A DNA stretch of 64,000 bases from Candidatus Acidiferrales bacterium (GCA_035515795.1 DATJAY010000012.1:24532-88531), one strand, 5' to 3'. Numbered from the stretch's first letter, positions 6,140-44,892 are shown. Notes: generated from the letters alone by a model not told the origin. Numbers and translations are program-made.

Positions 6140-6965
6140 CCAGGCTGTAAAACTAAGGGAAGTTGTAAGCGCGCAGACGAAAGTCTTGCCTATCGGCAAA
6201 TTGCCGTACAAGGTTGCGGTCGTCAGCGGAAAGGGGGGGGTTGGAAAAAGCAACATCGTTCTCAATCTCGGAATGGCGTTAGCCCGCGGCGGGGCGCGGG
6301 TCCTGTTAGTCGATGGCAACGTGAACTTGTCGAACCTGGACATTCTTTGCGCCGCCTCTCCCAAATATCGTCTCCTTGATGTCGTTGACGGCACAGCGCA
6401 GCTCAAAGATGCTGTTGCAGAAATATCACCTAACGTGTTTCTCCTTGCGGGATCCTCCGATGGGAGATTGAAAAAATTGAGCTCGGGTGATGCTGCTGTT
6501 CTTTTCAGGGAAGTTGGACTAATGGAGCCGGTGTTCCAGTATGCCTTGATCGATACGGCGGGTGGAATTGTGCAGGAATCCATTTCGCTTGCCCTGTTGT
6601 CCGATGAAGTGTTTGTGGTTGCGACGCCTGAACCGACGGCTGTAATGGATGCTTATGTCCTCGTGAAAGTGCTGAAGCGGATCAATTCCAACGCAGACTT
6701 GAAGCTACTCATCAATATGGCGAAAAGCGCCGAGGAAGCCGAAGAAGTGAAAGCGAAATTCGACCTCGTGAGCGAACATTTCCTCAATCTTAAGGTCGAT
6801 TACGCAGGCTTCATTCCTTCAGATCAGGCCATTGAGCAAGCCGTGAGCGTTCAATCGCCACTGTTGCAGGAATTTCCTGATTCCCTGTCATCCAGCGCAA
6901 TCAAATTGATCGCAGACGGAATCCTGGCAAGGCGAGAATCTGAATCCAGCGGAAGGAAAGAGTGA
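6132..6965 (+). CDS. flhG: MinD/ParA-type ATPase FlhG (flagellar number regulator)
   Basis: Deviant Walker A SGKGGVGKS. The ATG at 6132 overlaps the flhF stop (ATGCTTGA). The tracked start at 6090 is less likely. Confidence 0.85.
   Translation: MLDQAVKLREVVSAQTKVLPIGKLPYKVAVVSGKGGVGKSNIVLNLGMALARGGARVLLVDGNVNLSNLDILCAASPKYRLLDVVDGTAQLKDAVAEISPNVFLLAGSSDGRLKKLSSGDAAVLFREVGLMEPVFQYALIDTAGGIVQESISLALLSDEVFVVATPEPTAVMDAYVLVKVLKRINSNADLKLLINMAKSAEEAEEVKAKFDLVSEHFLNLKVDYAGFIPSDQAIEQAVSVQSPLLQEFPDSLSSSAIKLIADGILARRESESSGRKE
6233..6240 (+). repeat. G8 homopolymer inside the flhG P-loop codons
   Basis: The sequence reads gga aaG GGG GGG Gtt (K-G-G-V of SGKGGVGKS). It is the longest G/C run I found in the window. 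Confidence 0.9.
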
Positions 6966-7213
6966 TGGAAAAGTTAGCTATAAAAATACCAACGCTGATA
7001 TTCTTTTTGGCGGTTATCTATTTCGTATCAAACGGATCCGACGCAATCGATTCAATAGTCAGATCCTTCTTGATTGCCTTCGGTACCGCACTGATCATTT
7101 TAATATTGACCATGATGCTGGTTTTCTTTTTGACTATTCGCGAAGGCAGACACGAAAACATAAAAACTCTCGGCGTCAAAGATACCGGGAAGAAAGTTGA
7201 GATGCAGGCATGA
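6962..7213 (+). CDS. Small two-TM membrane protein of unknown function
   Basis: 83 aa with two hydrophobic helices. It has ATGA/GTGA-type overlaps with the flhG stop and the fliA start, which argues for translation. Confidence 0.5.
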   Translation: MMEKLAIKIPTLIFFLAVIYFVSNGSDAIDSIVRSFLIAFGTALIILILTMMLVFFLTIREGRHENIKTLGVKDTGKKVEMQA

Positions 7214-7959
7214 CTACGCAGGCAAAGACGCAGGATGTTGAGTCTCTTTGGCAGAGATATTCAAAGCGCAAGACCGCCTCGATAAAAAAAGAGCTTGTGC
7301 TCTTTTATATGTATCTCGTAAAATTCGCCGCAAGGGGAATAAGCCTTCCTCCGCGATGCGTATTCAATAATGACGATCTTATGAGCATTGGGATCATCGG
7401 ACTCAGCGAAGCGATCGAGAGATTCGACCCCTACCGTGGAGTGAAGTTTGAAACGTACGCCTCACAGCGAATCCGTGGGATCATGCTGGATGAGATAAGG
7501 AAAGTCGACTGGCTCCCGCGGTCGATCCGTGACAAATATAAGAAGGCCTGGAAATCGCTGAGCGAGCTTGACATGGATAGAATCGACGGCGAGCAGTATG
7601 CCCAGGCCATTAACATGACGGTCAGAGAGTTTGATCGGATAAAAGGTTACCTTGCGAATTCGGAAGCGGTATCACTCACGAAGAGCATCGGAGACGACAT
7701 GACTCTTGAAGATGTGGTAAGCGGTGACAGCGAAGTCGTCGAACAATATGAAGACGACGAAACGAAAGAGCAGCTTGTCGAGATATTGAAGCAGCTTCCT
7801 GAGAGAGAGCGTATGGTGATGACTCTTTACTATTACGAAGAAATCACTTTCAAAGAAATCGGAAAAATCCTAGGCATAAGCGAATCGAGAGTCTCTCAAA
7901 TCCATTCCGAAGTTCTCGATAAAGTCAAGGATCTCTTCAGAAAGGCAGTCGAACTATGA
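7210..7959 (+). CDS. fliA: Flagellar sigma factor sigma-28 (FliA)
   Basis: 249 aa. Region 2 reads IGLSEAIERFDP..GVKFETYASQRIRGIMLDEIRK. Region 4 reads LPERERMVMTLYYYEEITFKEIGKILGISESRVSQIHS. Confidence 0.9.
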   Translation: MTTQAKTQDVESLWQRYSKRKTASIKKELVLFYMYLVKFAARGISLPPRCVFNNDDLMSIGIIGLSEAIERFDPYRGVKFETYASQRIRGIMLDEIRKVDWLPRSIRDKYKKAWKSLSELDMDRIDGEQYAQAINMTVREFDRIKGYLANSEAVSLTKSIGDDMTLEDVVSGDSEVVEQYEDDETKEQLVEILKQLPERERMVMTLYYYEEITFKEIGKILGISESRVSQIHSEVLDKVKDLFRKAVEL

Positions 7960-9122
7960 TAGAGGTTGGACAATTGACTGACAAATTATCATCGATAAGA
8001 GAGCTCCCCACCTTTCCGACTACGGCGTTGGAAGTGATGAGGCTCGCAAGCGACGCGGAAACGAGCGCAGCAGAACTTTCTCGAATAGTTTCAAGAGATC
8101 CTGCGCTTTCGGCGAGAATACTTCGAGTTGCAAACTCGCCGTATTACGGCTTTGCTAAGAAGATTTCGACGATCGAATGGGCAATAGTAGCCCTTGGTTT
8201 CGAGACGCTTCGCGAGACCGTGCTGTCCCTGACCTTGATCGATCTCTTCAGAGGCGCGGCAATGAAAAACTTCGATCCGCGAAAATTCTGGAAACATGCA
8301 GTCGATACCGCATGCGCAGCGAGGTCGCTCGCGAAGGAAATGAAGAATAGAGTTCCCGGCGAGGCTTATGCTGCCGGTTTGCTCCATGATATCGGAGTCC
8401 TTGTCCTGTATAGGTTTTTCCCGGACGATTTCGCCGAAATTCAAAAATTGGTCGGTCGTGACGCCATGACACTTTCTCAGGCAGAGCTCGTGGTGGTCGG
8501 AACATCTCATGCCGACATCGGAGCATGGCTTGCAGAAAAATGGAATTTTCCTCTGAATTTTGTTGAGGCGATACGATATCATCATGCGCCGGGCTCTGCC
8601 CAAATCAATCCCGAGTTGACCGCGATAGTCCATGTGGCAAATCAGATTGCTTGCTCAGATGGTTATTCATGCTCTGATGATCCGTCAAAATTTGATCCTG
8701 CCGCGGTCCAAATAGTGGGCATCGACAAGCTTGGAGTCTCGGTCGCCTCGCTCGCCGATAAGTATATAAATGATGACTCTTCTTTGGCTGTGAGTATCAA
8801 AGTTCCAATCATGGACTATGCTCTTGGAGATGACGGCCATGACGGGAAAAGAAAGCATAAGAGATCTCTAACGGAAGACACGACCGAAGAGACACTCCGG
8901 AATTTTTTCAAGGCGGCGATTAAGCTCCTCCCGACGACCGAGAGACTCGTGCTGACTTTGAAGCTCTTTGAAGGCTTGGATATGAAGCAGGTTGCAATAG
9001 TGCTGGGGTATGATGAGGCAAGAGTTGCGGAGTATTACAAGAACGCCGTTTCGGTTCTTCAACAAATGGCAGAACGTGCGATACTTACAAACAGGTTGGA
9101 CCAATGGAAAACGAGATACTAA
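7956..9122 (+). CDS. HDOD domain protein with a C-terminal sigma-70 region-4-like HTH
   Basis: The N-terminus shows HDOD hallmarks (LPTFPTTALEVMRL, ANSPYYGF, GLLHDIGVLVL, IRYHHAPG). The C-terminus (nt ~8925-9080) reads LLPTTERLVLTLKLFEGLDMKQVAIVLGYDEARVAEYYKNAVSVLQQ. The start overlaps the fliA stop. Confidence 0.8.
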   Translation: MIEVGQLTDKLSSIRELPTFPTTALEVMRLASDAETSAAELSRIVSRDPALSARILRVANSPYYGFAKKISTIEWAIVALGFETLRETVLSLTLIDLFRGAAMKNFDPRKFWKHAVDTACAARSLAKEMKNRVPGEAYAAGLLHDIGVLVLYRFFPDDFAEIQKLVGRDAMTLSQAELVVVGTSHADIGAWLAEKWNFPLNFVEAIRYHHAPGSAQINPELTAIVHVANQIACSDGYSCSDDPSKFDPAAVQIVGIDKLGVSVASLADKYINDDSSLAVSIKVPIMDYALGDDGHDGKRKHKRSLTEDTTEETLRNFFKAAIKLLPTTERLVLTLKLFEGLDMKQVAIVLGYDEARVAEYYKNAVSVLQQMAERAILTNRLDQWKTRY

Positions 9123-9964
9123 AAGAGAAAGTTCAGAATATTATCCAGCTTCCCGCTCTCCCGGCGATTGCGGTGGAGGTGGCTTCGCTCATCGACAACC
9201 CGAACACGAGCGTCTCGAGGATCACGCAGGTAATTTCCGCTGATCAGGTATTGACAGCGAAGGTGCTTAAGATCGCGAATTCTCCATTCTATGGATTCCA
9301 GAAAAAAATATCGACACTCGATTTTGCCATCATGGTACTCGGCTTCGATTCTCTCAAGGAAATCCTCATCAGCGTCTCGTTGATAAGTGCATTCAAGAAA
9401 AAACAGGACAAGTATTTCGACTCGCGTGAATTTTGGGAGCACTCGCTAGCATCTGCCATTGCAGCACGTACTCTGGCGAGGCAATTGGGATACAGGATAA
9501 GCGGTGAGTCGTTTGTCGCGGGGCTTCTCCACGACATCGGCATCCTCGTCACCCACCAGTATTTCTACGAGGATTACAAGAGAATTGTCGAAGCGGTTAC
9601 GGACGGGAAAGCAACGTTCCAGGATACGGAGCAGGAAGTGTTGTTTGCTACACATGGAGAGATAGGCGCATGGCTTGCCGAAAGATGGAATCTCCCCGAC
9701 CAGCTTATCGAAACGATAAAATTTCATCACAAGCCCGAACTTGCGGAAAGAAATCCCCAGCTGACCGCACTGATCCATTTTGTCGATTACTTGTGTCATA
9801 AACTTCAGATCGGCATGTTCTCTTACGAAAGGGTTGAAACCTACAATCCTCAAGCTCTGAAAACTCTGAATTTGTCCGAGTCGGAGGTCACCCAATCTTT
9901 CCTGGATACATTCGGGTCGAGACTGCGTCAAGATCTGGAAAAAACTTTTGTCGGGATAATCTGA
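9104..9964 (+). CDS. Stand-alone HDOD domain protein, paralog of the preceding N-domain
   Basis: Motifs LPALPAIAVEVASL, ANSPFYGF, GLLHDIGILV and IKFHHKP. It overlaps the upstream gene by 19 nt. Confidence 0.85.
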   Translation: MENEILKEKVQNIIQLPALPAIAVEVASLIDNPNTSVSRITQVISADQVLTAKVLKIANSPFYGFQKKISTLDFAIMVLGFDSLKEILISVSLISAFKKKQDKYFDSREFWEHSLASAIAARTLARQLGYRISGESFVAGLLHDIGILVTHQYFYEDYKRIVEAVTDGKATFQDTEQEVLFATHGEIGAWLAERWNLPDQLIETIKFHHKPELAERNPQLTALIHFVDYLCHKLQIGMFSYERVETYNPQALKTLNLSESEVTQSFLDTFGSRLRQDLEKTFVGII

Positions 9965-9985
9965 TTCATTCGTGGAGCGTTGGCA

Positions 9986-11377
9986 ATGAAAAAAGAAGTT
10001 GTTGAACAGGAATGTGTGAAGACGAGCGTCACTGATGCCGTCGAAGTCGTCGAGCGGTTCATGGAAACGCGCGAAAGTTATGTCCGCGCACTGGAAACTG
10101 CCGTTCAGGCATTAAAAAACAAAATCGACTTTCATGAAAAAACGGAAAGCACGATAAAGCAATCGATCGATGAATTGCTGGCTGTCCAACGGCTCGGCAA
10201 TATCATTAGCACCTCGAGCGATTCTGTCTCGGTCTTCGATTCATTGCTTGATCTCACCCGTCAGGTCATCCCCGTCGAAGAGAGCATGATTTTCGAAGTC
10301 GGAAATTCCAGATCGCGTGTCAATCCGTTTCTTCAGATATGCACGGAATATATGATGAAAAGTTGTCAGCATTTGTTGGAGGAAGGAATTCTCGATTGGG
10401 TAATCGAACAGAAAAAGACGACTGTGGTTCCCGATTTAAATTCTTCGGTGGGGGAAATAGGCGAGCGGAATTTTGTCGTGGTGCCGCTCGTACTGAGGAG
10501 CGAAGCGATTGGAGTTTATGTGATTCATACCGAAAGAGTCAGCAAGGCTCTTTCCGAACACGATTTGGCACTTCTCGGCGTGCTCGCAAACCAGGCGGCG
10601 GTCGCCATAGAGAACCTCAGAAATGTTGAAAAACTCCGGAATGCAGCCGATGAATTGAAGAAATCACAATCGCAGATGGTTCACGCTGCAAAGCTTGCTT
10701 CGCTTGGCGAACTTGCCGGTGGCGTGGCACACGAGATAAATAATCCTCTCCAAATTCTGCTCGGCCATGTCGCCCTTCTTTCGCAAGGCAAGGATGTCGA
10801 GCACAGAATCGAAATCATACGAAACCAGGTCCAACGGATCGCACAGATTACCAGGCAGCTTGTTTCATTCTCACGAAGCGTTCCGGACGAGCTTGATCAC
10901 GAGCCCCTGAACGTCAACTGGGCGATCGATGAAATAATCGCTTTGGTGGACTACCAATTCAAAAATCGCGGGATTGAGTTTGACTTGAGATATTCGGATG
11001 ATCTTCCGCCGCTCGATTCCAATAAGAATTATCTGCAGCAGGGTTTTCTCAACTTACTCTTGAATGCCAAGGACGCGATGCCTAACGGCGGCAAGATGCT
11101 GATCTCTACGGAGTATCATGACGGAAAGATATTCATCCGTTTTTCAGATACCGGTGTCGGGATCAAGAAAGAAAACATGGCAAAGATATTCGAGCCTTTT
11201 TTCACGACAAAAGAACCTGGCAAAGGGACAGGATTGGGACTTTCGATAACGAGAGGAATCATAAGGAAACTCAGTGGAGAAATTAAAGTTGACAGCGTCG
11301 AAGGTCGTGGTACGACATTTACGATTTTCATACCTGTAAAGAAGAGTTTAGAGACAACCAACGGAGGAAATAGATAA
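9986..11377 (+). CDS. Soluble GAF-domain sensor histidine kinase
   Basis: No TM segment. It has a GAF-like region (...NFVVVPLVLRSEAIGVYVIH...), H-box GVAHEINNPL, N-box LLLNAKDAM and G-boxes DTGVGI / GTGLGLS. I chose the ATG at 9986; the tracked start is the TTG at 9980. Confidence 0.85.
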   Translation: MKKEVVEQECVKTSVTDAVEVVERFMETRESYVRALETAVQALKNKIDFHEKTESTIKQSIDELLAVQRLGNIISTSSDSVSVFDSLLDLTRQVIPVEESMIFEVGNSRSRVNPFLQICTEYMMKSCQHLLEEGILDWVIEQKKTTVVPDLNSSVGEIGERNFVVVPLVLRSEAIGVYVIHTERVSKALSEHDLALLGVLANQAAVAIENLRNVEKLRNAADELKKSQSQMVHAAKLASLGELAGGVAHEINNPLQILLGHVALLSQGKDVEHRIEIIRNQVQRIAQITRQLVSFSRSVPDELDHEPLNVNWAIDEIIALVDYQFKNRGIEFDLRYSDDLPPLDSNKNYLQQGFLNLLLNAKDAMPNGGKMLISTEYHDGKIFIRFSDTGVGIKKENMAKIFEPFFTTKEPGKGTGLGLSITRGIIRKLSGEIKVDSVEGRGTTFTIFIPVKKSLETTNGGNR

Positions 11378-12048
11378 TGTTTGGGATGATATTATGTTTG
11401 CTTTCGGATTCAACTGCGGTGGACATTAGGGCGCTGGTGTCCCGGGACATTGACAAGGCGACTAACGCATCCGGAAGTGCAAGTCAGAGTTTTGTCCAGA
11501 GGGTTTTAGAAGTGCCCGAATTTGTGCTGATTACCGAGCTTGCTATGATTCTGATAATGGCCGGGCTGTTTGTTGCTCTGGTAATTCGATTCCGCAAGAT
11601 AGCAAAGGAACAGAATCGCAGAATCGCCTACGTGCAGAAGATAAAGGCGAAAATGCAGCCCTCCATCTCGCGGGCGGAGGTCGAGAGAATTCTCAATCAA
11701 ATTGCGACCGAAAAATTTAAGGCTTACGAGATGGCACACGGAAATTATTATGTTGACTATGATGGCAAGCTCGACTCTGATGAGGCGATCCACGAGATGG
11801 CAAGGTCACACAAAATGGAATCCGAACGCCTGAACTTCGCGCTGTCCGCCGCCTCACAGTCGGCGAGGCAAGGCGGGGCGAAATTTAAAGAGGCGTTCGC
11901 TCTTGTGAGCGAAGATTCTAACCTGACCGTCCTCGCACGTCAACTAAACATGGGAAAGGGTGAGCTTGAGCTTATACTTGCCCTCAAGAGAAGCAAGATC
12001 GCAAATTCAAAACATTTGTCCGGGAGCACCGAAAGGAACGGGTTATGA
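11377..12048 (+). CDS. Single-pass membrane protein with a C-terminal HTH-like motif (possible SwrB-like flagellar accessory protein)
   Basis: One TM segment (FVLITELAMILIMAGLFVALVI) and the C-terminus NLTVLARQLNMGKGELELILALKR. It has a TAATG overlap with the kinase stop and an ATGA overlap with flgF. Confidence 0.6.
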   Translation: MFGMILCLLSDSTAVDIRALVSRDIDKATNASGSASQSFVQRVLEVPEFVLITELAMILIMAGLFVALVIRFRKIAKEQNRRIAYVQKIKAKMQPSISRAEVERILNQIATEKFKAYEMAHGNYYVDYDGKLDSDEAIHEMARSHKMESERLNFALSAASQSARQGGAKFKEAFALVSEDSNLTVLARQLNMGKGELELILALKRSKIANSKHLSGSTERNGL

Positions 12049-12794
12049 TCAAAGGAATTTACACGAGCGCGCTTGGACTGCTGCCGCTTCAAAAGAAACT
12101 TGAAGTGATTGCAAACAATCTTGCCAACGTGAACACGACGGCGTTCAAAAGGGACGACGCCTTTGCAAACGAGTTGATCTCTGCAAAGACTCTCCTGCAT
12201 AATGGTACAACCGATCCCGTTGAGAAAGACGTCGATGAACAAACCACCACTGATTTTTCGCAGGGCACGCTTCGCGAGACAGGCAATACTCTAGATGTAG
12301 CAATTGACGGTCAGGGTTTTTTTGCGGTAGAAACAAATGATGGAGTAAAGCTCACGCGTGACGGTTCGTTTACGATCTCGACCGATGGAACTCTTGTTAC
12401 AAGAAATGGCGATGCCGTCATGGGAACCGGCGGATCGATCAAAATTGACGACATACAGGATCTGCAAAAGAGCCAGCTCGTAATTGAGCGCGACGGAGTG
12501 GTCAAGGCAGGGAACAAAATCTATGGACAAATTCAAATTGTGTCTCCTGAGAATTTGAATCAGCTTTCGAAATCCGGAGAAAATTCGTACACGTTCAAGA
12601 CCGATAGTGCCTTAAAGCAAATCGATCCGTCAGCATATACGGTCAGGCAGGGATTTTTAGAAGGCTCGAATGTCAACCCGATCGATGAAATGGTCGCGAT
12701 GATCCAGATTCAACAGAATTTCGAAGCCGGCCAGAAGGCAATCCAAAGTCAGGATACATCGCTCGGGCAATCGAACGATGTCGGCAAGATATAG
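12045..12794 (+). CDS. flgF: Flagellar proximal rod protein FlgF
   Basis: N-terminal rod signature LEVIANNLANVNTTAFKR and C-terminus GFLEGSNVNPIDEMVAMI. Confidence 0.85.
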   Translation: MIKGIYTSALGLLPLQKKLEVIANNLANVNTTAFKRDDAFANELISAKTLLHNGTTDPVEKDVDEQTTTDFSQGTLRETGNTLDVAIDGQGFFAVETNDGVKLTRDGSFTISTDGTLVTRNGDAVMGTGGSIKIDDIQDLQKSQLVIERDGVVKAGNKIYGQIQIVSPENLNQLSKSGENSYTFKTDSALKQIDPSAYTVRQGFLEGSNVNPIDEMVAMIQIQQNFEAGQKAIQSQDTSLGQSNDVGKI

Positions 12795-16226: not shown

Positions 16227-17075
16227 ATGGAAAAGATAGACCCGAACATTTCGCAAATCCATCCGCAGTTCACCGAACAGCAGAAAACAAAACTCATGGC
16301 AGCTGCCAAAGACTTTGAGGCGGTTTTCATGCAATACATGCTGAAGTCTATGGAGGAGAGTGAAAAAATTTCCGGACAAGATGACAGTGAACAGGGCTAC
16401 GGAAAAGATATCATGACCGGACTCTTCGATACGGAGATGGCGAGGTACGTTACGGACAAGTCCAATCTCGGAATCGGCAACATGCTCTACAAGCAGTTCA
16501 CCGGTGAAGACATGGATTCAGGAATATCGGGCAGGTCAAATTCAATACCTGAAATGCTAAGGCAAATCCTTCCTGATGAACGAACTCGGGAGCGTGTTCT
16601 TCAAAAAATCGGCTCTTATAGCTCCGGCTCGGTGTTGGAGAATGTGGGACAATACTCCGATATAATAAATGAAGCGGCAGGTAAGTACGACGTGAAGCCA
16701 AGTCTGATAAAAGCCGTGATTGCTGCGGAATCTGGAGGAAATGCAGATTCTGTCTCGACCAAAAACGCCAAAGGATTGATGCAGCTTGTCGATACAACGG
16801 CCGAGGAGGTCGGAGTGAAGAACGTTTTCGATCCGCGCGAGAATATCATGGGCGGGACAAAATATTTAAAGAACTTGATAGAAAAGTTTTCCGGCAACAT
16901 TGAACTGGTGCTGGCATCTTACAATGCAGGCACTGAAGCAGTCGAACAATACAAGGGCGTTCCGCCATTCAACGAAACTCAAAACTATGTGAAAAGAGTA
17001 AAGAGCTATCTTCAGATGTTCGATGGCGAGGATTCAATTGCTGGAATGGTAAGCGGGGCAGATGATGAACGATAA
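16227..17075 (+). CDS. flgJ: FlgJ-type rod-binding domain fused to an SLT lytic transglycosylase domain
   Basis: The N-terminus is Rod_binding-like (AAKDFEAVFMQYMLKSM...GIGNMLYKQF). The C-terminus has SLT motifs (AESGGNADSVSTKNAKGLMQL, SYNAG). Confidence 0.8.
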   Translation: MEKIDPNISQIHPQFTEQQKTKLMAAAKDFEAVFMQYMLKSMEESEKISGQDDSEQGYGKDIMTGLFDTEMARYVTDKSNLGIGNMLYKQFTGEDMDSGISGRSNSIPEMLRQILPDERTRERVLQKIGSYSSGSVLENVGQYSDIINEAAGKYDVKPSLIKAVIAAESGGNADSVSTKNAKGLMQLVDTTAEEVGVKNVFDPRENIMGGTKYLKNLIEKFSGNIELVLASYNAGTEAVEQYKGVPPFNETQNYVKRVKSYLQMFDGEDSIAGMVSGADDER

Positions 17076-17505
17076 GACGAAACGTTTGATGGAATTGACG
17101 GAGCAGGAGACCGCCGAGTTAGACAGGATGGCGGTCATTTTGAATGCAAAACATGAAGCCATCTCGAAGCTGCATTCTAAGATGGTACAACAGATCTTGG
17201 TCGAAGAATTGGAGAGGCTCAAGCGGATTCAAACCATCGAAAAAGAGCGTGCCATGATATTGAAGGATTTGTCTTTGTCCGGGAAAGATTTGAACGACTC
17301 GGTGGTCATCAGGAAAAAATTTGGGGAAGAAGACTCGAAAATTGTTGCGTCTCTTCATTCGAATTTAAAAGAATCTTTCGCGCGCGTCGTTTCTCTGAAT
17401 GGTATCAGCCGCGCCTTGCTTAGACACTCGCTCGCCTTTATAAGGCAAAACATCAACATACTGACCGAGGGCGGCAAAAGAAAACTTATCGACAGGAAAG
17501 CATAA
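17062..17505 (+). CDS. FlgN-like export chaperone (tentative)
   Basis: 147-aa predicted helical protein immediately upstream of flgK-flgL. The assignment rests on position and composition only. Confidence 0.5.
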   Translation: MMNDKTKRLMELTEQETAELDRMAVILNAKHEAISKLHSKMVQQILVEELERLKRIQTIEKERAMILKDLSLSGKDLNDSVVIRKKFGEEDSKIVASLHSNLKESFARVVSLNGISRALLRHSLAFIRQNINILTEGGKRKLIDRKA

Positions 17506-21706: not shown

Positions 21707-21988
21707 ATGCTAGTCTTAACAAGGAAGTTAGGGGAAGCCATCAAGATAGGCGACAAGGTAAAAGTCGTAGTCGTCTCAATCGATGGTACAAGTGTAAAGT
21801 TGGGGATCGAAGCTCCAGAAGAAATTCCTGTTCACCGGGAAGAAATCTACAAGAAGATAGCTGCGGAGAACGTGGCGGCATCATCGGAAATTGATAAAGA
21901 GAAGCTGAAGATTTTAAAAAATATTTTGTCGAAAAATCGCGGCTCGGGTTCGGGCGGGCGGTCTTCTTCGGGAAAGAAAAATGGCTAA
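21707..21988 (+). CDS. csrA: Carbon storage regulator CsrA with an extended Gly/Ser/Lys-rich tail
   Basis: Core [49 protein letters not shown] ~35-aa tail follows, ending [16 protein letters not shown]. Confidence 0.9.
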
Positions 21989-22697
21989 GCCGCAGCGGAA
22001 AACGGTTCTTGTCATAGACGACGACAAGATGGTACAACGCTATATTGAAGAATTCTTTAAAAGACTCAAATTCGTTTTCTATGCCGCTTCCGATGGATAT
22101 GAAGGGCTGAAGTTCGCACTGTCTTCAAAACCTGATTTGATATTCCTGGACATCATGATGCCGCGCTTCGACGGATTCAAGACGCTCCAGGTTCTTAAGT
22201 CAAATGATTTGACGAAAAATATCCCGGTCGTGGTGATGACCGCATATTCCGACAGAATAAATGTGGTTTCCGCATGCAAGCTTGGCGCCGCTGCGGTAAT
22301 TACGAAACCCTTGACGGAAGAAATTTTTTTTGAAAAACTGAAGCAGATCTTCGGAGAGAAGTTTGTCCGGTCCGTGATTCCGCGCGATCCAAAGGAAACT
22401 GAAAATCCATTCGGCGTAAAGGAGGACGAGTACAATGAGGTCGTTCGCGGAATGGTCGAGGAATTCTTGAAATACTATTCGGCAGAAGTAGAAGACCTCG
22501 AGCGGGCAGTTCACGAAAAAAACGTCGATGTGATTCGAAGGATTACGCACAGTCTCCGCGGGACCGGCGGATCATTCGGTTACGGCGGGGCGGCGGCGCT
22601 CGCAGTCAGGCTCAACGAACTGGTTCACACATCGCCGATAGACTGGGAAGAGGCAGAGGAGGTTTTAATCATGCTAAAAAATAAGTTGCAAAGATGA
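21981..22697 (+). CDS. Response-regulator receiver fused to an Hpt phosphotransfer domain
   Basis: REC motifs [16 protein letters not shown] and ITKP. The Hpt-like helix is [20 protein letters not shown]. The start overlaps the csrA stop by 8 nt. Confidence 0.8.
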
Positions 22698-23077
22698 AAG
22701 CACTAGTAGCAGACGATGTCCCGATGATCCGGAAACTTGTCGAGTTCCATTTGAAGCAGATAGGATTCGATATATCAAATGCCGCTGATGGAGCAGAAGC
22801 GTTGACGCTCGCAAGCAACTCGAAATATGATTTGATAATCTTGGACATAATGATGCCCGAGATGGACGGGCTTGAAGTTCTGCACCGCATTCGCTTGGAC
22901 TCAATAAACAAGGCTACGCCGGTTATTATCATGACGGCTTACAGCGATTATTCGAACGTCAAGAAAGCGGTGGAATACGGAGCAAATGATTTTATTGTAA
23001 AGCCCGTCGAGCAGGTTTCTTTCAGAAAAAAGGTGATCGATGCGGTCAGTGTGAAGCCGCCGGAGTCGGTAAAGTGA
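22694..23077 (+). CDS. Single-domain CheY-like response regulator
   Basis: 127 aa with ALVADD, LIILDIMMPEMDG, MTAY and FIVKP. It has a 4-nt overlap with the upstream gene. Confidence 0.85.
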   Translation: MKALVADDVPMIRKLVEFHLKQIGFDISNAADGAEALTLASNSKYDLIILDIMMPEMDGLEVLHRIRLDSINKATPVIIMTAYSDYSNVKKAVEYGANDFIVKPVEQVSFRKKVIDAVSVKPPESVK

Positions 23078-24591
23078 AACTCTCGTTATCCATGATCGTT
23101 AAGAACGAAGCGAGATTCCTGCCGGGGTGCCTGGAAAGCGTAAGGGATCTCGTGGATGAGATAGTAATCGTGGACACCGGCTCGACGGACGAAACAAAAT
23201 CCATCGCCGGAAATTTCGGCGCGAAAGTCTTTGATTTTGAATGGAAGAACGACTTTTCACTTGCACGAAATGAATCGATGCGAAGAACAACCGGAGATTG
23301 GGTCCTCTACCTCGATGCGGATGAAAGAATCGAAAAATGTCATCACGAGAAGATCAGGAAACTCATTTCGTCCGGAGGCGGAGATGCACTCCTGCTGAAT
23401 CTAAAAAGCAAAATAGGCGTCAAAGAGGATTCGCAGTACCATCTTGTCTCTTATCCGCGGCTGTTCAGGAAAATGAAGGGAGTTGCATTTACAGGAAAAG
23501 TTCATGAGCAGATTAACAATTCGCTCCTTGCCGCGCGTGCAAGGATTGTCCAAACCGACGTAACCATTATCCATCTCGGCTATGCGCAAGATGAAGATGT
23601 CATTCGCGAGAAGGCGAAGCGAAATTATCTTCTGCTCCTCGAACAAATTGAACGACGGGAAAATTACGGCTATGCTCTCTATCAGCTTGGCCAGACGGAG
23701 ATGGTCCTTGGTGATGTCGAAAAGGGAATCGCGCATCTATACGAGGCGATTGCCGCCGGAGGTTTTGGCAAACCTGTTGAGGCTTCGATTTACGGAATCA
23801 TCGCAGAGAAGAAATTCAATCAGGGAGACACAGAAGGCGCGTTGGAAGCATGCGATAAGTCTCTCGCCGCTGCTCCGTCGCAATCATTTGCTTTGATAAT
23901 GAAAGGCGATATTTATCTCAAATACGGCAGGTATCGCGAATCTGTCGATTCATTTATGAGAGCACTTGAAGAATATCGTTCCAGCGTTCTTCTGGGGAAA
24001 GCTGCAACGGCAATCGAGCCGGTATTCGATATCGACGTTCTTTATTCGAAAATCGCTGCGGCTTCTTCCCTTGGCGGAGATTTGGAAGCGGCAAAGAAGT
24101 ACTATGGGCTTGCCGCCGAGACGAAAGGGAAGCCCGAAAAGGTGGCGAGGTATTTTGAATTTTTGGTGAAAAATAAAATGTGGGATGATGCCGTTGAGGC
24201 TTCGAAGAGATTTGGTGATTACGAAAACGAAGGCTGGTATTTAAGGATCGTCTCCTCTGCCTGCATTGATACTGGAAATTTCCTGGAAGCGGCGAGGCTG
24301 CTTGAAAAAATTGCGGACCATGATGCTGTTTCGTTGTCGAGTCTGGCTAATTGTAAGATGAAAGTCGGTGATTTCGAAGGTGCGGAATGTGCATTTCGCA
24401 GTGCAATGAATTTAGGATATGACGATATGCAGGGTTTGGAACTCTTTGGACTGATTCAGTTTAAGCTCGGGAAATTTTCTGACGCAGCCGAGACTCTCGG
24501 AAGAATTGTCGAAGCGAATCCGGAAAATGCGAAAGCGCGGAAGTTTGTTCAGGCGGCCAGGGAACGAATAAGAAATCTTGCTGCAGTATGA
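23074..24591 (+). CDS. Family-2 glycosyltransferase with C-terminal TPR repeats (candidate flagellin/flagellar glycosyltransferase)
   Basis: The N-terminus is GT-A type (LSLSMIVKNEARFLPGCLES...VDTGSTDET...YLDADE). About 300 aa of TPR-like repeats follow. The start is GTG with a GTGA overlap with the upstream stop. Confidence 0.8.
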   Translation: MKLSLSMIVKNEARFLPGCLESVRDLVDEIVIVDTGSTDETKSIAGNFGAKVFDFEWKNDFSLARNESMRRTTGDWVLYLDADERIEKCHHEKIRKLISSGGGDALLLNLKSKIGVKEDSQYHLVSYPRLFRKMKGVAFTGKVHEQINNSLLAARARIVQTDVTIIHLGYAQDEDVIREKAKRNYLLLLEQIERRENYGYALYQLGQTEMVLGDVEKGIAHLYEAIAAGGFGKPVEASIYGIIAEKKFNQGDTEGALEACDKSLAAAPSQSFALIMKGDIYLKYGRYRESVDSFMRALEEYRSSVLLGKAATAIEPVFDIDVLYSKIAAASSLGGDLEAAKKYYGLAAETKGKPEKVARYFEFLVKNKMWDDAVEASKRFGDYENEGWYLRIVSSACIDTGNFLEAARLLEKIADHDAVSLSSLANCKMKVGDFEGAECAFRSAMNLGYDDMQGLELFGLIQFKLGKFSDAAETLGRIVEANPENAKARKFVQAARERIRNLAAV

Positions 24592-39403: not shown

Positions 39404-42235
39404 TTGAAGCTGGAAAGCTACTCCGATCAGGAACTTGCCGAGCGCACAAGCTCCGTCCGCGCCGTCCTTTTGTTGTTGGCGATAGCCGTTACTCTCTATG
39501 CGGCCATCATGTCAATCGTATTCAGCGAGCACATCTTCAGATGGATTGGTTTGGAGGCCTTGACGGTTACGTTCACATTTGTTGCTTTGTGGTTGAACGG
39601 AAGGGGCCATGTCCGGGCTGTCGTCATTTGCGCCCTTATATATTTCTGGATGGTGATAACCGGATTTGCGCTGACTTCGGGTGGCATAAGAGGTCCGGCT
39701 GCTGTCATGTATTTGGGTCTCGTCTTCAGCGCAGGCCTGTTCTTTGGAAAGAATGTCGCGATCTTCGCAGCCATCGTATGCAGCCTCTCCGACCTGGGCT
39801 TCGTGTACCTGAGCGCTCATGGCCTCCTGCCTGCTCCTATATCACATTTTAATGATATCAGGTTCTGGATCGCGCATACTTTTGTCCTTTCCCTGTCCGT
39901 AATTCTTCCAAGTGTGGTGACGCGAAGCATAAGAAATGCTCTGCATAAAGCAACTGATGAAATAAATGAGCGTAAATCAGCGGAAGCTGCATTGTTTACC
40001 TCCAGACAAATGCTCCGCTTAGTACTCGATACGATTCCACAGCGCGTATTTTGGAAAGATCAGAACCTGAAATATCTAGGCTGCAACGAATCATTTGCGG
40101 AAGACTGCGGTTATGAAAAGCCTGAAGACGTTATTGGTTTGGATGATCACGACATAGCATCGGTCCAAACGGCGGATCTTTACCGGGCTGATGACCGCGA
40201 GATAATTGAAAAAGATTTGCCGAAACTCATGTATGAGGAGCCTCAAGTTAGATCGGACGGTGCGCTGGCCTGGTTGATAACCAGCAAAGTTCCGCTGCAT
40301 GACGCGGACGGAAAAGTCATAGGAGTGCTGGGAACCTATGAGGATATCACCGATAGAAAAAATGCCGCGAGGGCGGTCCTCGAGAGTGAATCGAAATACC
40401 ACAGGTTGATTGAATCCATGCCTGATGGATACTATCGCAGCACGCCGGAGGGCAAGTTTATCGACATCAATCCGGCTTTTGCAAGACTCCTTGGCTATAC
40501 GCGGGAAGAATTACTTGAGATGGACATACCGAATGCTCTCTATTTTGACAAATCGGAGCGGGACGATCTCGTGAAGGACCCCGAATCCAAGTCGGGAACC
40601 GAAATCTATCGGCTCAAGAGAAAAGACGGGACTGAAGTCTGGCTCGAAGACCATGCGCGTTATGTTCGAGATGATCAGGGAAAGATGGTGTACCACGAAG
40701 GAATCTGCCGCGACATCACGGAGAGAAAGCGAGCCGAGGAAGCACTGAAGCGGCAAAGATTATTGTTCGAGAATTTTGCAGATGTAATTCTTTACTTCAG
40801 GCACTCCGACGGCAAAATTATTGAAGCAAACAGAGCCGCCGAGACTGCTTATGGTTATTCCCGTGATGAGCTGCTCACCAAGACTATCTATGACTTCAGT
40901 GTCAATGAAACCTCCGAAGAGGTGCAGGCGCAAATAGGCAAGGCTTACTCAAGTGGAATTGTTCTTGAAACGGTACACCGGCGCAGAGACGGGTCTACTT
41001 TTCCGGTCGAGGTAAGATCGGGTGGGCTGACGATGGGAGGCGAACGTGTTCTGGTAAGCGTTATCCGCGATTTGACCGAACGCAACCAGCTTCAGGAACA
41101 GCTTATCCAATCGCAGAAGCTGGAAGGACTGGGACTCCTCGCAGGTGGAGTCGCTCATGATTATAACAATATCTTGAACGTTATCATGGGCTACACGGAT
41201 ATCCTGAGATCAAAATTGGAAAAAGATGATCCCGACAGGCAACGGCTTGAGGTCATCATGTCTGCCGCAAACAGGGGGGCTGCGCTGACGAGACAACTTC
41301 TCGTTTTTGCAAGGAAAGATGTCGTATCACCGCGAGCCATCAACATGAATTCTTCCATAGAGTCAATTCGGAAAATGATGGAGACGATAATCGGCGAAAA
41401 TATTAAACTCGTCTCTATTCCCGGAGATCGCCTGTGGAACGTTTACATAGATCCTTCGCAGCTGGATCAAGTCATAATGAACCTGGTGACAAACAGCAGG
41501 GATGCAATCGATGGAGTCGGGACGATAAGCATCAAGACTTTCAATATGCATGTGCACGAGAAAAGCGCCGAGAGACCTGTCGATTTGAGTCCGGGCGACT
41601 ACGCAGTCCTGTCGATCACCGACACCGGACGAGGAATGCGGGAAGATGTTTTGAAAAGATTATTTGAGCCGTTCTTCACAACGAAACCGAAAGGGCGGGG
41701 AACCGGGCTTGGACTTTCGACGGTGTATGGGATAGTGAAACAAAACAATGGAGCCATCGATGTGGCAAGTAAACCGGGAGTGGGGACAAGGTTTCAGATC
41801 TTTTTGCCCCGCTATTGCGGCGAACCGGAGGAGCTGGAAGAGGACATTTCTGAAGAGCCATTGAAGGGAACTGAGACAGTCCTCGTTGTCGAAGATCAGG
41901 CTGAACTTCTTGATCTGGTAAAATTCAGTTTGGAAGAGTTTGGGTACAGCGTACTATCGGCGATAGATCCTCACCAGGCGCTTTTGATTTGTGAAGCATT
42001 TCCGAAAAAGATCGACTTGCTGCTGACCGATGTAATCATGCCCACCATGAGCGGCAAGCAGCTGAGCAAGAGAATTCTCGCCCTGAAACCCGACACCAAA
42101 GTCCTGTATATGTCAGGCTACACGGCGAACGAGCTCAATCATCACGGCGTTCTTGCGGATGATATCAATTTCATACAAAAGCCCTTTAATGTGATCGACC
42201 TTCTGAAGAAAATGCGGGGTGTGCTGGACAAGTAG
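39404..42235 (+). CDS. Membrane-bound PAS-domain hybrid sensor histidine kinase with a C-terminal receiver
   Basis: About 5-6 N-terminal TM helices and three PAS-like modules. H-box GVAHDYNNIL, G-boxes DTGRGM / GTGLGLS, and REC (LLLTDVIMPTMSG...KP). The start is TTG. Confidence 0.85.
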   Translation: MKLESYSDQELAERTSSVRAVLLLLAIAVTLYAAIMSIVFSEHIFRWIGLEALTVTFTFVALWLNGRGHVRAVVICALIYFWMVITGFALTSGGIRGPAAVMYLGLVFSAGLFFGKNVAIFAAIVCSLSDLGFVYLSAHGLLPAPISHFNDIRFWIAHTFVLSLSVILPSVVTRSIRNALHKATDEINERKSAEAALFTSRQMLRLVLDTIPQRVFWKDQNLKYLGCNESFAEDCGYEKPEDVIGLDDHDIASVQTADLYRADDREIIEKDLPKLMYEEPQVRSDGALAWLITSKVPLHDADGKVIGVLGTYEDITDRKNAARAVLESESKYHRLIESMPDGYYRSTPEGKFIDINPAFARLLGYTREELLEMDIPNALYFDKSERDDLVKDPESKSGTEIYRLKRKDGTEVWLEDHARYVRDDQGKMVYHEGICRDITERKRAEEALKRQRLLFENFADVILYFRHSDGKIIEANRAAETAYGYSRDELLTKTIYDFSVNETSEEVQAQIGKAYSSGIVLETVHRRRDGSTFPVEVRSGGLTMGGERVLVSVIRDLTERNQLQEQLIQSQKLEGLGLLAGGVAHDYNNILNVIMGYTDILRSKLEKDDPDRQRLEVIMSAANRGAALTRQLLVFARKDVVSPRAINMNSSIESIRKMMETIIGENIKLVSIPGDRLWNVYIDPSQLDQVIMNLVTNSRDAIDGVGTISIKTFNMHVHEKSAERPVDLSPGDYAVLSITDTGRGMREDVLKRLFEPFFTTKPKGRGTGLGLSTVYGIVKQNNGAIDVASKPGVGTRFQIFLPRYCGEPEELEEDISEEPLKGTETVLVVEDQAELLDLVKFSLEEFGYSVLSAIDPHQALLICEAFPKKIDLLLTDVIMPTMSGKQLSKRILALKPDTKVLYMSGYTANELNHHGVLADDINFIQKPFNVIDLLKKMRGVLDK

Positions 42236-42390: not shown

Positions 42391-44892
42391 CTACTTAGTT
42401 TTTCTCTTCCTGCTTTTCTTCCTACTCGTTTCTTTTTCTTCCCCCGACATCTCCTTCAATCTCTTCGCCACAAGGTGGAACACGGAATTTTTTTCGTACT
42501 GGCCTTTCCTGTCTTGCTTTCCTGCAGCTACACCGGTCAGGATTTCTATCCCATCCTCAATTCGCTCGACCGGATAAATGTGGAACCTCTTTTCGTTCAC
42601 TGCCCGGATTACTTCATCGCGGAGCACGAGGTCTTTCACGTTTCGCTGAGGTATGATGACTCCCTGATCGCCAGTCAAACCTTTCGACTTGCAGACCTGG
42701 TAGAAGCCCTCGATCTTCTGGTTCACTCCACCGATCGGCTGAACATCGCCTTTCTGGTTCACGCTTCCTGTGACTGCGATGCCCTGCTTTATCGGGAGGT
42801 TACTAAGACTCGACAGCAGCGCATAGAGTTCGGTTGACGACGCACTGTCGCCATCGACGCCGCTGTACGATTGTTCAAATGCAATACTTGCCGAAAGCGA
42901 GAGTGCCTTTTCTCTCGCAAACTTCTCGCGCAGGTAACCTGAAAGTGTCATGACGCCTTTATCGTGGACTTTTCCCGACAAATTTGCCTCGCGCTCGATG
43001 CTCGTGATTCCCGCTTTGCCCATTCCGACTGCGGCCGTAATGCGCGTCGGCTTTCCGAAAGAGTAATATCCGATATCGTAAACGGCGAGTCCATTCACCT
43101 GTCCAACGCGTTCACCAGTCGTATCGATCATGATCATGTCCCTCTCGATCATTTCCTGGACTTTATCTTCGGTGAGATTGTTCCTTTCGATGAGCGATTC
43201 GAGACTCTTGCCGACATCTTCTCTGTTGACGAGTTTGTGCTCATTCTTGCTTGCCCAGAAGCTCGCTTCACGGAGAAGGTCGGCGATGTCACTGAACCGG
43301 GTCCAGAGTTTATCCTGCCGCTCCGCCTGACGTGCAGCGAACTCGATTACTGCTGCCACGCCTGATTTGTCGAAGTGCATCAGATTTTCCGCCCTGCATA
43401 TTCGCGAGATGAACCTTGCATACTCTGTAATTTTCTCGGAGTCTAGTCTTACTTCGCTGTCAAAGTCTGCCTTCACTTTGAAGATCTTCTTAAAGTCCTC
43501 CTCGGCGTCGTACAGAATGTCGTAGACATACGGATCGCCGATGAGTATGACCTTCACGTTGATGTTGATCGGCTCCGGTTTCAGAGCGATCGAGTTCAAT
43601 TGGAAAAAAGTGTCCAGCGGCTGGATCTCCAATTTTCTGTAAATCAGCGTCCGCTTTAGAGCCTTCCAAACTCCTGGCTCGGTCAGCGCGTCGAGCGCGT
43701 TCAGCACTATGTAGCCGCCGTCCGCGCGAAGGAGCGCTCCGCCTTTGATTTTTGTATGATCGGTTTGAAAAAATCCACGCGCGTCGATCAGTCTTTCGAT
43801 TGTTCCGAAAATATTTGTGTAAGTCGGACTCGTTTCAATTACGACTGGACAACGCTCCCGATCCGTGTTGTCTTGAATCAGGTTTACCCGGTAGACGATG
43901 AAGGGATCGCTTGCCGGTCTTGGCGGCTGAGCCTCGGAATCCTGTTCTTCACCTCCCTTGAAGATTTGTATGTTGTTCAATGTATATTCTTGCACCAGCT
44001 TGAGATAGTCGAGGACCGCCTGGTTCATTTTGAATCGGTTCTCCAGTTCCTCAAATATTGAGCTGACGACCACCGAGACGGTTTGTCTCTCCATGTCCTG
44101 GATTTTTCTTACCATTTCTCCCGCAACCGTAGAGCCTTTTCGCGCCACCGCGGCAAGCTCTTTTCTGAACTCCTGTAGTTTGTGTTCGGCATCTATGTAA
44201 TCTTTTGTTGTCAATTTGCCTTCGCCTGCAAGCTTTTCAAGCTCTTCGATGGGAACGGGTTTGCCTTGAAAGACAGGGAAAACCTGCGGCTGGGTGATCG
44301 GTCCGATTTGGACGGGCACGAGCGCGAATCCTTCACTTTCGATCTTCCTTTGAAATTCCGTGAGGAGAGCCTTCTCTCTTTTCTCGTACGACTCAACAAT
44401 CTTGCTCCTCGCATCTGTGTAAGCTTCGCCTGTCAATAACTCCGGGATTTTTCTGATGAGATAGCGGACCGTCGCTTCGAGATCTTCCTTGAATTTTTTC
44501 CCCTGACCGCGGTCGAATTCGAGCAGATGCGGATTGTCCGGCTCTCTAAAATTGAAGACGTAGCACCTGTCGGGGGATGGCGTGCACTCCACCGTAATTT
44601 CTTCCAAGAGCCGTTTGATCGTGGTGAGCTTCCCGGTGCCGGCGAGCCCGCTGACGAAAATATTGTAGCCGGGACTCTTTATATTGACGCCGAACTTCAG
44701 AGCCTTCACGGCTCGTTCCTGGCCTATGATGGAATCGATCGGTTCTAATTCTTCGGTGGATTTGAATTTCAGTTCGCTTTCCGGACAACGCCATGTCAAC
44801 TGTTCCGGGGTCAATTCGCGATACGTCTTTCTAGTCTTCAAGATATGCCCTGCCTTTTCTTCCAATTTATTCGGCGGAGGAATTAATAGCAA
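42391..44892 (-). CDS. Lon-like (S16) protease with a divergent AAA-like N-domain (COG1067/LonC-like)
   Basis: Motif IIGQERAVKALKFGV and P-loop-like GLAGTGKL. The protease domain has GDSASST (Ser) and GGVNQKIEGF (Lys). Confidence 0.85.
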   Translation of the reverse strand: MLLIPPPNKLEEKAGHILKTRKTYRELTPEQLTWRCPESELKFKSTEELEPIDSIIGQERAVKALKFGVNIKSPGYNIFVSGLAGTGKLTTIKRLLEEITVECTPSPDRCYVFNFREPDNPHLLEFDRGQGKKFKEDLEATVRYLIRKIPELLTGEAYTDARSKIVESYEKREKALLTEFQRKIESEGFALVPVQIGPITQPQVFPVFQGKPVPIEELEKLAGEGKLTTKDYIDAEHKLQEFRKELAAVARKGSTVAGEMVRKIQDMERQTVSVVVSSIFEELENRFKMNQAVLDYLKLVQEYTLNNIQIFKGGEEQDSEAQPPRPASDPFIVYRVNLIQDNTDRERCPVVIETSPTYTNIFGTIERLIDARGFFQTDHTKIKGGALLRADGGYIVLNALDALTEPGVWKALKRTLIYRKLEIQPLDTFFQLNSIALKPEPININVKVILIGDPYVYDILYDAEEDFKKIFKVKADFDSEVRLDSEKITEYARFISRICRAENLMHFDKSGVAAVIEFAARQAERQDKLWTRFSDIADLLREASFWASKNEHKLVNREDVGKSLESLIERNNLTEDKVQEMIERDMIMIDTTGERVGQVNGLAVYDIGYYSFGKPTRITAAVGMGKAGITSIEREANLSGKVHDKGVMTLSGYLREKFAREKALSLSASIAFEQSYSGVDGDSASSTELYALLSSLSNLPIKQGIAVTGSVNQKGDVQPIGGVNQKIEGFYQVCKSKGLTGDQGVIIPQRNVKDLVLRDEVIRAVNEKRFHIYPVERIEDGIEILTGVAAGKQDRKGQYEKNSVFHLVAKRLKEMSGEEKETSRKKSRKRKTK

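Follow-up and report, generated by a model that had tools for sequence, protein, structure and literature searches.

The systems closest to the locus examined here are cytoplasmic kinases of the flagellum and HDOD proteins that affect motility. In FlhF/FlhG flagellates a cytoplasmic flagellum-associated kinase is almost always present, with a sensor domain that varies (PMC7064773, PMC12607845); FlgS of Campylobacter and Helicobacter, FlrB of Vibrio, and FleS of Pseudomonas are soluble HisKA/HATPase kinases of this kind. HDOD domains are widespread and genetically tied to motility in several bacteria, and they have no agreed molecular function. Two HDOD proteins, GsmR and Cj0248, affect motility (PMC11004494, PMC6543031), and a third, SadB, is the one HDOD protein with a defined mechanism: it lacks three of the metal-site histidines and acts as an adaptor, binding the C-terminal domain of a transcription factor and delivering that factor to Lon (PMC12075610). 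We analyzed a stretch of 64,000 nucleotides (the window; GCA_035515795.1 DATJAY010000012.1:24532-88531), deposited as Candidatus Acidiferrales bacterium, in which genes for a stand-alone HDOD protein and a GAF histidine kinase lie between fliA, which encodes sigma-28, and flgF in a long flagellar gene array. We conclude that these two genes, with the gene for a FipA-like membrane protein that follows them, form a conserved, co-translated module of the flhF-flhG-fliA block in Kryptoniota-like (FCB-group) bacteria.

Seven gene neighborhoods were retrieved through kinase homologs of 35-72% identity, and all seven had the order flhF-flhG-(small open reading frame, ORF)-fliA-HDOD-kinase followed by a small membrane protein, with room between fliA and HDOD for an optional gene, HDOD-r4, in which an HDOD domain is fused to a FliA-like sigma region 4 (r4). 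When metagenome contigs were searched with a family-specific GAF motif, [LIV]E[EDS]GI[ILV]D[WY]V, and the loci were annotated with hidden Markov models built from those fetched earlier, 47 confirmed loci were obtained, representing 34 clusters at 90% kinase identity and a GC content of 32-71%. The HDOD gene was the immediate same-strand upstream neighbor of the kinase gene in 40 of 40 evaluable loci, with an overlap of 4 nt in 13 loci, and of the 30 loci with enough flank, 29 had fliA ahead of the HDOD gene or genes. Synteny from flhF to the FipA-like gene, and in some clades on to flgF, was kept at kinase identities of 35-85%; in the three nearer clades flgF came directly after the small membrane protein, and in the most distant clades the operon ended there. 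This arrangement recurs far beyond chance, and it marks the HDOD and kinase genes as a putative, hitherto undescribed module for flagellar regulation in Kryptoniota-like bacteria. An earlier, sequence-only reading of the window had proposed a signaling cassette and had named a lack of conservation beside fliA in relatives as a finding that would refute it; these counts show the opposite. A scan of genome contigs with the whole-kinase alignment was less useful; among the matches listed, 79 of 80 were unrelated kinases (generic H-box/GAF-end patterns) and L010 was the lone ortholog.

From position 1 to ~24.6 kb the plus strand of the window is a near-gapless array of flagellar genes, which the 9 kb upstream of the window on the source contig extends by fliJ, fliK, flgD, flgE, flbD, fliL, fliM, fliN, and fliO. 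As read from the sequence, fliA and the HDOD-r4 gene overlap at ATGA, the HDOD-r4 and stand-alone HDOD genes share 19 nt (9104-9122), a 21-nt gap with GGAG preceding the ATG at 9986 separates the HDOD gene from the kinase gene, the kinase gene runs into the next gene (11377-12048) through TAATG, and that gene runs into flgF through ATGA. No terminator-like site was found on the plus strand between 7000 and 12800, leaving nothing that isolates the cassette, and promoter-like matches in a promoter scan of the cassette region were no more frequent than the chance level. The sequence-only reading had placed a stand-alone HDOD gene and a GAF-HisKA-HATPase kinase gene inside the flagellar operon, joined to their neighbors by overlaps or very short gaps (19 nt, TAATG, ATGA); the positions and Pfam domains agreed with it (Table 1), each of those junctions was present, and the tight start/stop coupling and lack of an isolating terminator support a place for the genes within the flagellar operon. 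The layout as a whole resembles that of the Bacillus subtilis fla/che operon, which is ordered flhF-flhG-che genes-sigD-swrB; both are single-strand super-operons that run from fliJ through fliR-flhB-flhA-flhF-flhG to the gene for sigma-28 and then to one for a single-pass membrane protein. In contrast to the B. subtilis operon, the array here has no che genes, the HDOD and GAF kinase genes follow the sigma factor gene, and the array goes on into rod, ring, and hook-associated genes.

The kinase ORF was called mechanically from TTG 9980; the 463 amino acids (aa) of the identical protein in databases point to ATG 9986 as the most likely start. Its AlphaFold2 (AF2) model consists of a long N-terminal helix (residues 15-75), a GAF domain (80-190), a continuous signaling helix leading into the dimerization and histidine phosphotransfer (DHp) domain (191-297), and a catalytic and ATP-binding domain (306-450), with no transmembrane (TM) helix. 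The H-box reads HEINNPL, with His249 kept in at least 90% of 51 orthologs, and residues N356/N360, D388-G390-G392, F402/F405/F406, and G414-G418 were invariant across these orthologs; with an H-box in the DHp domain and N, G1, F, and G2 boxes, the protein classifies as a predicted class I (HisKA) kinase. In comparisons between the same genomes the kinase was better conserved than FliA (51, 44, and 39% identity relative to 40, 40, and 36%). A Foldseek search of the model against the PDB returned generic kinase cores only and gave no hint of a GAF ligand. One homolog, P0100 (L107 328-2172), has 614 aa and ends in a receiver domain, a hybrid form that fits a multi-step relay.

The kinase thus has no TM helix and is encoded in a fliA-flgF interval of an FlhF/FlhG genome, as is characteristic of flagellum-associated kinases. 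It shares with FlgS, FlrB, and FleS a soluble HisKA/HATPase architecture, a place among flagellar genes, and an NtrB-like transmitter core behind an N-terminal sensor region that varies (PAS or coiled coil in those proteins). It differs from them in that its sensor is a coiled coil plus GAF, in that its gene comes after fliA with an HDOD gene as its constant partner, and in that neither an adjacent cognate NtrC-type regulator (FlgR, FlrC, or FleR) nor a sigma-54 promoter signal accompanies it. The sequence-only reading had held that structural flagellar operons rarely carry a dedicated sensor kinase co-translated with rod genes, which overstates the matter, as polar flagellates with FlhF/FlhG have, as a rule, a cytoplasmic flagellum-associated kinase such as FlgS, FlrB, or FleS (PMC7064773). 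The present locus would extend this rule, a cytoplasmic kinase dedicated to the flagellum, to hitherto unstudied members of the FCB group, here with a GAF sensor and no adjacent sigma-54 partner.

The stand-alone HDOD protein gave 283, 308, and 323 bits with the single HDOD proteins of other lineages, relative to 219, 228, and 234 bits for the HDOD-r4 fusion; because its scores are the higher, we assign it as the ortholog of those single proteins and hence as the conserved core. The earlier description of it as a second HDOD paralog inserted into the operon is therefore reversed: the stand-alone gene is the core ortholog and the r4 fusion the clade-specific addition. The closest solved structure was 3HC1 (E 9e-39), an uncharacterised HDOD protein of G. 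sulfurreducens whose pocket holds two iron ions with five His and one Asp as ligands (PMC12075610). Residues H113, H143, D144, H184, and H208 were invariant among cassette HDOD domains, r4 fusions included, H209 was at least 90% conserved, and all six aligned with the corresponding His/Asp of 3HC1; the residues of an HD-type two-metal pocket are thus intact and constitute a putative metal site. The protein has the HDOD fold in common with SadB (Pseudomonas), GsmR (Xanthomonas), and Cj0248 (C. jejuni), all three genetically linked to flagellar synthesis or motility, and Cj0248 (1vqr) matched it with E 6.5e-18. It differs from SadB and GsmR in standing alone, whereas SadB carries a YbaK-like domain and GsmR a receiver domain; its five His and one Asp are all retained, unlike those of SadB; and it differs from all three in being encoded inside a flagellar operon beside fliA, with a paralog fused to sigma-28 region 4. 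HDOD homologs outside the cassette family (in Calditrichota, Deferribacteres, and Planctomycetota) had neighborhoods that were not flagellar, indicating that the flagellar linkage is specific to the cassette family and not a property of all HDOD proteins.

The C-terminus of the HDOD-r4 protein matched the FliA/WhiG models best, at positions 150-222, and its region 4 was 29% identical to that of the same genome's FliA; a match to the PhyR family was weak and due to the r4 part. Since region 4 alone is present, giving 33.9 bits relative to a sigma-28 cut-off of 189.6, the protein is not a sigma factor. The AF2 model (pTM 0.62) placed the HDOD domain at residues 1-270, a linker with pLDDT <50 at 274-308, and a four-helix r4 at 309-377. 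Orthologs matching over the full length, with 62-100% identity, were confined to the window's clade, and a second clade had an HDOD version 34-36% identical in which r4 was likewise present. The fusion occurred in 13 of 29 loci showing fliA, and in one truncated locus besides, always between fliA and the stand-alone HDOD gene in the loci that carry it. An analogy, and no more than that, can be drawn with PhyR-type sigma mimicry, in which a sigma-like domain without promoter-melting regions is likewise fused to a signaling domain; HDOD-r4 could titrate binders of the real sigma region 4. It differs from PhyR in having region 4 only, of FliA and not extracytoplasmic function type, in carrying HDOD in place of a receiver, and in having no anti-sigma partner identified. 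At L104 296-3303 two tandem HDOD-r4 fusions stand ahead of the stand-alone HDOD gene. At L008 4429-4749 a 106-aa ORF starting MRPLDMSDIVNKASYVERLHQNQQQQ lies between fliA and HDOD, and at L007 4652-5974 a 440-aa HDOD protein has an N-terminal extension starting MVRPIDLQDNLSKAPLVGRLQQVQQNAS; neither had a family match, and the resemblance of the ORF to the extension makes this look like a second gene fusion onto HDOD.

The conserved core of the cassette encodes no receiver. In the window, candidate acceptors are encoded at the end of the same operon: a REC-Hpt protein, which has both its acceptor Asp (FLDIMMP) and its Hpt His (HSLRGTGG), and a single-domain receiver with its acceptor Asp, Thr, and Lys. 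Both genes are translationally coupled to csrA, so that in the window's clade a histidine kinase, a REC-Hpt protein, and a REC protein make up the full parts list of a phosphorelay within one operon. Orthologs of REC-Hpt, down to 55% identity, were all on contigs of the close kinase clade, in a search that did not extend to the adjacent single-domain receiver; in L094, where REC-Hpt is 55% identical, the csrA-REC/Hpt-REC-GT2/TPR synteny was kept. As its orthologs end at the window's own clade, REC-Hpt was rejected as a universal partner of the kinase, and the REC-Hpt/REC pair would be a clade-specific route at best. Contrary to the sequence-only reading, the cassette is not self-contained, having no receiver domain of its own and a REC-Hpt without an ortholog outside the window's clade; that reading also noted no adjacent DNA-binding response regulator, and none was present anywhere in the 64-kb window or in the 9 kb upstream.

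We propose, with a probability of roughly 0.4, that the module centers on a sensor kinase of the flagellum particular to this lineage, connected to sigma-28 through its HDOD partner. The kinase would be a functional analogue of FlgS, FlrB, and FleS, and its input would be a cytoplasmic cue received through the GAF domain and N-terminal coiled coil, through the HDOD partner, or through both. The HDOD protein would be its obligate partner and the link to sigma-28, either by binding FliA region 4 or by gating the kinase, and the HDOD-r4 paralog would serve as a tethered region-4 mimic or competitor. Phosphate would pass to receivers encoded outside the cassette, most likely in the window's clade from REC-Hpt to REC, and the output would be the timing or level of late (sigma-28-dependent) flagellar expression, or flagellar assembly. 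Control of sigma-28 output or rod assembly, as we infer it from gene content and as the sequence-only reading had suggested, may then be the function of the module.

The link to sigma-28 is suggested by the adjacency of fliA and HDOD, the recurrent fusions of HDOD to FliA r4, and the precedent of SadB as an adaptor. An additional point is that flgM, which usually precedes flgN, was missing there in five loci (the window, L001, L003, L005, and L094); no FlgM-like ORF was seen within the 64-kb window. A narrower version, in which the HDOD protein binds FliA region 4 as an anti-sigma factor or adaptor set by the metal site and the GAF kinase, with HDOD-r4 as a region-4 decoy, we consider unlikely. 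If true, it would provide FlgM-independent control of late flagellar genes and the first general molecular function for the HDOD domain; a fixed place beside fliA and a soluble kinase, a full metal site, and repeated fusion to sigma-28 region 4 are handles on that function in any case. Full-text literature searches on HDOD, alone and together with fliA and flagella, on flagella of Kryptonia and Ignavibacteria, and on GAF kinases in flagellar clusters yielded no account of the module, and databases name its products only "HDOD domain-containing protein" and "ATP-binding protein". The components are of known kinds; their combination, their position, and the HDOD-r4 architecture are new.

Several points weigh against this proposal. 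In the AF2 model of HDOD-r4 the two domains are joined by a disordered linker, which offers no evidence for a contact of r4 with HDOD, nor any against it, and the Arg of the r4.2 recognition helix is not retained in the second fusion clade. The fusion could also have arisen trivially, if the unit "fliA 3' end + HDOD" was duplicated in tandem and a stop codon was then lost, which would produce the order fliA, HDOD-r4, HDOD as it is seen. The core encodes no receiver and REC-Hpt is absent beyond the close clade, and the fused receiver of P0100 showed only generic similarity, 22-28%, to the receivers of the window. FlgM, CheA, RpoN, and NtrC-type regulators could be encoded elsewhere in the genome. 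No cultured representative was identified.

The first of the alternatives that we weighed is a strict checkpoint of the FlgS/FlrB type, in which the kinase monitors whether the export gate, MS ring, and rotor are complete and then phosphorylates an unlinked NtrC-family, sigma-54-dependent regulator that activates rod and hook genes, with HDOD as an accessory. The transmitter core is indeed nearest the NtrB-like kinases AtoS and ZraS, homologs carry the JGI label "NtrC family sensor kinase", the kinase, like FlgS and FleS, is a cytoplasmic protein that begins with a coiled coil (PMC7064773), FlhF/FlhG are encoded in the genome, and the kinase gene lies just ahead of rod genes. Against this, V. 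cholerae FlrB (PDB 9p6i; PMC12607845) matched the generic core only, over residues 223-460, with 80 bits relative to 114 bits for ZraS, and ranked ninth among solved kinases, below ZraS and KinB, a result that does not identify the kinase as an ortholog of FlrB. Neither the window and the 9 kb ahead of it nor the cassette flanks in seven other lineages contained an NtrC-type or Sigma54_activat protein. Matches to the sigma-54 consensus numbered 26, relative to 25 expected by chance, and none fell in the intergenic gaps of the cluster; a search with the sigma-28 consensus was also at the chance level. Little space is left for class-specific promoters, since the genes for rod, hook, and export apparatus follow one another on one strand almost without gaps. 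We regard this checkpoint as improbable, although no more so than the next alternative.

That alternative is a behavioral input of the CheA type, in which an HDOD-gated GAF kinase acts through REC-Hpt and REC on the motor in a tactic response to redox state, a metal, or a metabolite. The kinase occupies the slot, from flhG/fliA to the FipA-like gene, that is filled by che genes in gamma-proteobacteria (PMC11620751); genes for cheA, cheW, and methyl-accepting chemotaxis proteins were absent from the window and the 9 kb upstream; the REC-Hpt and REC genes adjoin motAB, fliW, and csrA; and the residues of the HDOD metal site are conserved. On the other hand, the cassette persists outside the close clade, where REC-Hpt is missing, the single-domain receiver scored 78.7 bits with the CheY model, far under the equivalog cut-off of 189, and chemotaxis genes may simply lie elsewhere in the genome. 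These considerations make a tactic role a doubtful alternative to the flagellum-associated kinase with a sigma-28 link.

Less likely again is a nucleotide second-messenger node, with HDOD as a receptor or hydrolase for cyclic di-GMP (c-di-GMP) or another nucleotide and GAF as a cyclic-nucleotide sensor, tying flagellar synthesis to the choice between motile and sessile life. Binding of cyclic nucleotides is common among GAF domains, and the HDOD domain belongs to the HD superfamily and here keeps all the metal ligands. SadB of P. fluorescens has been reported to bind c-di-GMP (PMC6543031), whereas that of P. aeruginosa does not and is a protein adaptor (PMC12075610), and there is no report of catalysis by any HDOD domain (PMC6543031). 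No GGDEF, EAL, or PilZ gene was present in or near the cassette. That the genes are hitch-hikers, in the operon by accident and with no flagellar role, is very improbable given an adjacency of 40/40 and 29/30 over 34 clusters of GC 32-71%, conserved translational coupling, a kinase better conserved than FliA, and the lack of linkage of unrelated HDOD genes to flagellar genes.

The gene after the kinase completes the module. FipA, a protein of a TM helix plus DUF2802, is an FlhF-binding polarity factor of gamma-proteobacteria, encoded after flhF-flhG-fliA (PMC11620751). The window protein may resemble it in layout, with a predicted N-terminal TM helix (a hydrophobic helix evident in the sequence), then a predicted cytoplasmic coiled region and a C-terminal motif of putative DUF2802 type; FipA occurs only with FlhF/FlhG and downstream of flhF-flhG-fliA (PMC11620751), and the gene here has that setting. 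The motif contains a Gly and a Leu, and binding of FipA to FlhF has been reported to occur via such conserved residues. In contrast to FipA, the window protein fell below Pfam thresholds (DUF6115 E 0.008, DUF2802 E 0.29), and relatives often have two motif copies and long N-terminal extensions. Positional orthologs scored higher: L001 passed the DUF6115 cut-off of 27 with 31.4 bits, and L007 came close to the DUF2802 cut-off of 33.5 with 31.9 bits. A gene with the FipA-type motif followed the kinase gene in 24 metagenome loci of the main clades. These results suggest that an FlhF polarity factor is distributed far more widely than in gamma-proteobacteria and is present in the FCB group. Among the relatives of the FipA-like protein two copies of the motif were frequent, and the N-terminal extensions were as long as 524 aa.

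Table 1. Coordinates of the cassette genes and their neighbors in the window, with gene order along the array
Feature	Coordinates	Strand	Basis
Gene order 1: fliP, fliQ, fliR, flhB, flhA, flhF, flhG		+	domain annotation
Gene order 2 (after flhG): 83-aa membrane ORF, fliA, HDOD-r4 fusion, HDOD, GAF kinase, 223-aa membrane protein		+	
Gene order 3: flgF, flgG, flgA, flgH, flgI, flgJ, flgN, flgK, flgL		+	
Gene order 4: motA, motB, fliW, csrA, REC-Hpt, REC, GT2-TPR protein		+	
Predicted two-TM membrane protein, 83 aa, between flhG and fliA	6962..7213	+	no Pfam/NCBIfam match
fliA (sigma-28)	7210..7959	+	Sigma70_r2 + r4; TIGR02479 FliA_WhiG 206.4 bits vs cut-off 189.6
HDOD fused to FliA-like sigma region 4	7956..9122	+	HDOD E 8.5e-66 plus Sigma70_r4_2
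Stand-alone HDOD protein	9104..9964	+	HDOD (PF08668) E 4e-66, profile positions 1-196 of 196
Coiled-coil + GAF + HisKA + HATPase_c kinase, predicted cytoplasmic	9986..11377	+	GAF 2e-10, HisKA 9e-10, HATPase_c 2.2e-24
FipA-like membrane protein, 223 aa	11377..12048	+	one predicted TM helix + C-terminal 'GxGKGE(L/V)EL' motif, putatively DUF2802/DUF6115-type
flgF-type proximal rod gene	12045..12794	+	Flg_bb_rod, LlgE_F_G_D1, Flg_bbr_C domains
REC-Hpt phosphorelay protein, candidate acceptor	21981..22697	+	Response_reg 3.7e-24, Hpt 4.2e-8
Single-domain receiver	22694..23077	+	Response_reg E 2.2e-30

The small ORF ahead of fliA overlaps both the flhG stop and the fliA start. ORFs of 72-83 aa occupied the same position in L001, L003, and L005, with ~25% identity and E 3e-4 to 4e-6, and L008 had an 83-aa ORF at the equivalent position with no BLAST match to the window copy. 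Further downstream flgJ directly overlaps flgN (window 16227-17505). Rfam and tRNA scans of the window gave no matches, and an exact 25-mer from the end of L001 (Kryptobacter), used to walk downstream, had no match in metagenome contigs. Proteins identical to those of the window carry the NCBI label "Candidatus Acidoferrales bacterium", a metagenome-assembled genome (MAG); the named close relatives for the kinase, HDOD-r4, and REC-Hpt were Candidatus Kryptoniota, Kryptobacter, Chrysopegis, and Bacteroidota MAGs, and the source MAG may be taxonomically mislabeled.

At the end of the array csrA (93 aa, 21707-21988) overlaps the start of the REC-Hpt gene (21981) by 8 nt. A database protein, P0138, has CsrA, REC, and Hpt in one 332-aa product, probably by read-through or as an artefact of gene calling. 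The last receiver gene is translationally coupled to a gene for a family 2 glycosyltransferase (GT2) with tetratricopeptide (TPR) repeats (23074-24591), which stands at the end of the flagellar operon and is conserved in L094; its product may be an enzyme of flagellin or flagellar glycosylation. Outside the array, a hybrid kinase on the plus strand (39404-42235), composed of three PAS domains, HisKA, HATPase_c, and REC, would require a partner with Hpt, for which the REC-Hpt protein (21981) is a candidate. Beside it, on the opposite strand, lies a gene for a LonB/LonC-like protease (42391-44892, minus strand), a neighbor of possible interest, given that SadB, itself an HDOD protein, hands its target over to Lon.

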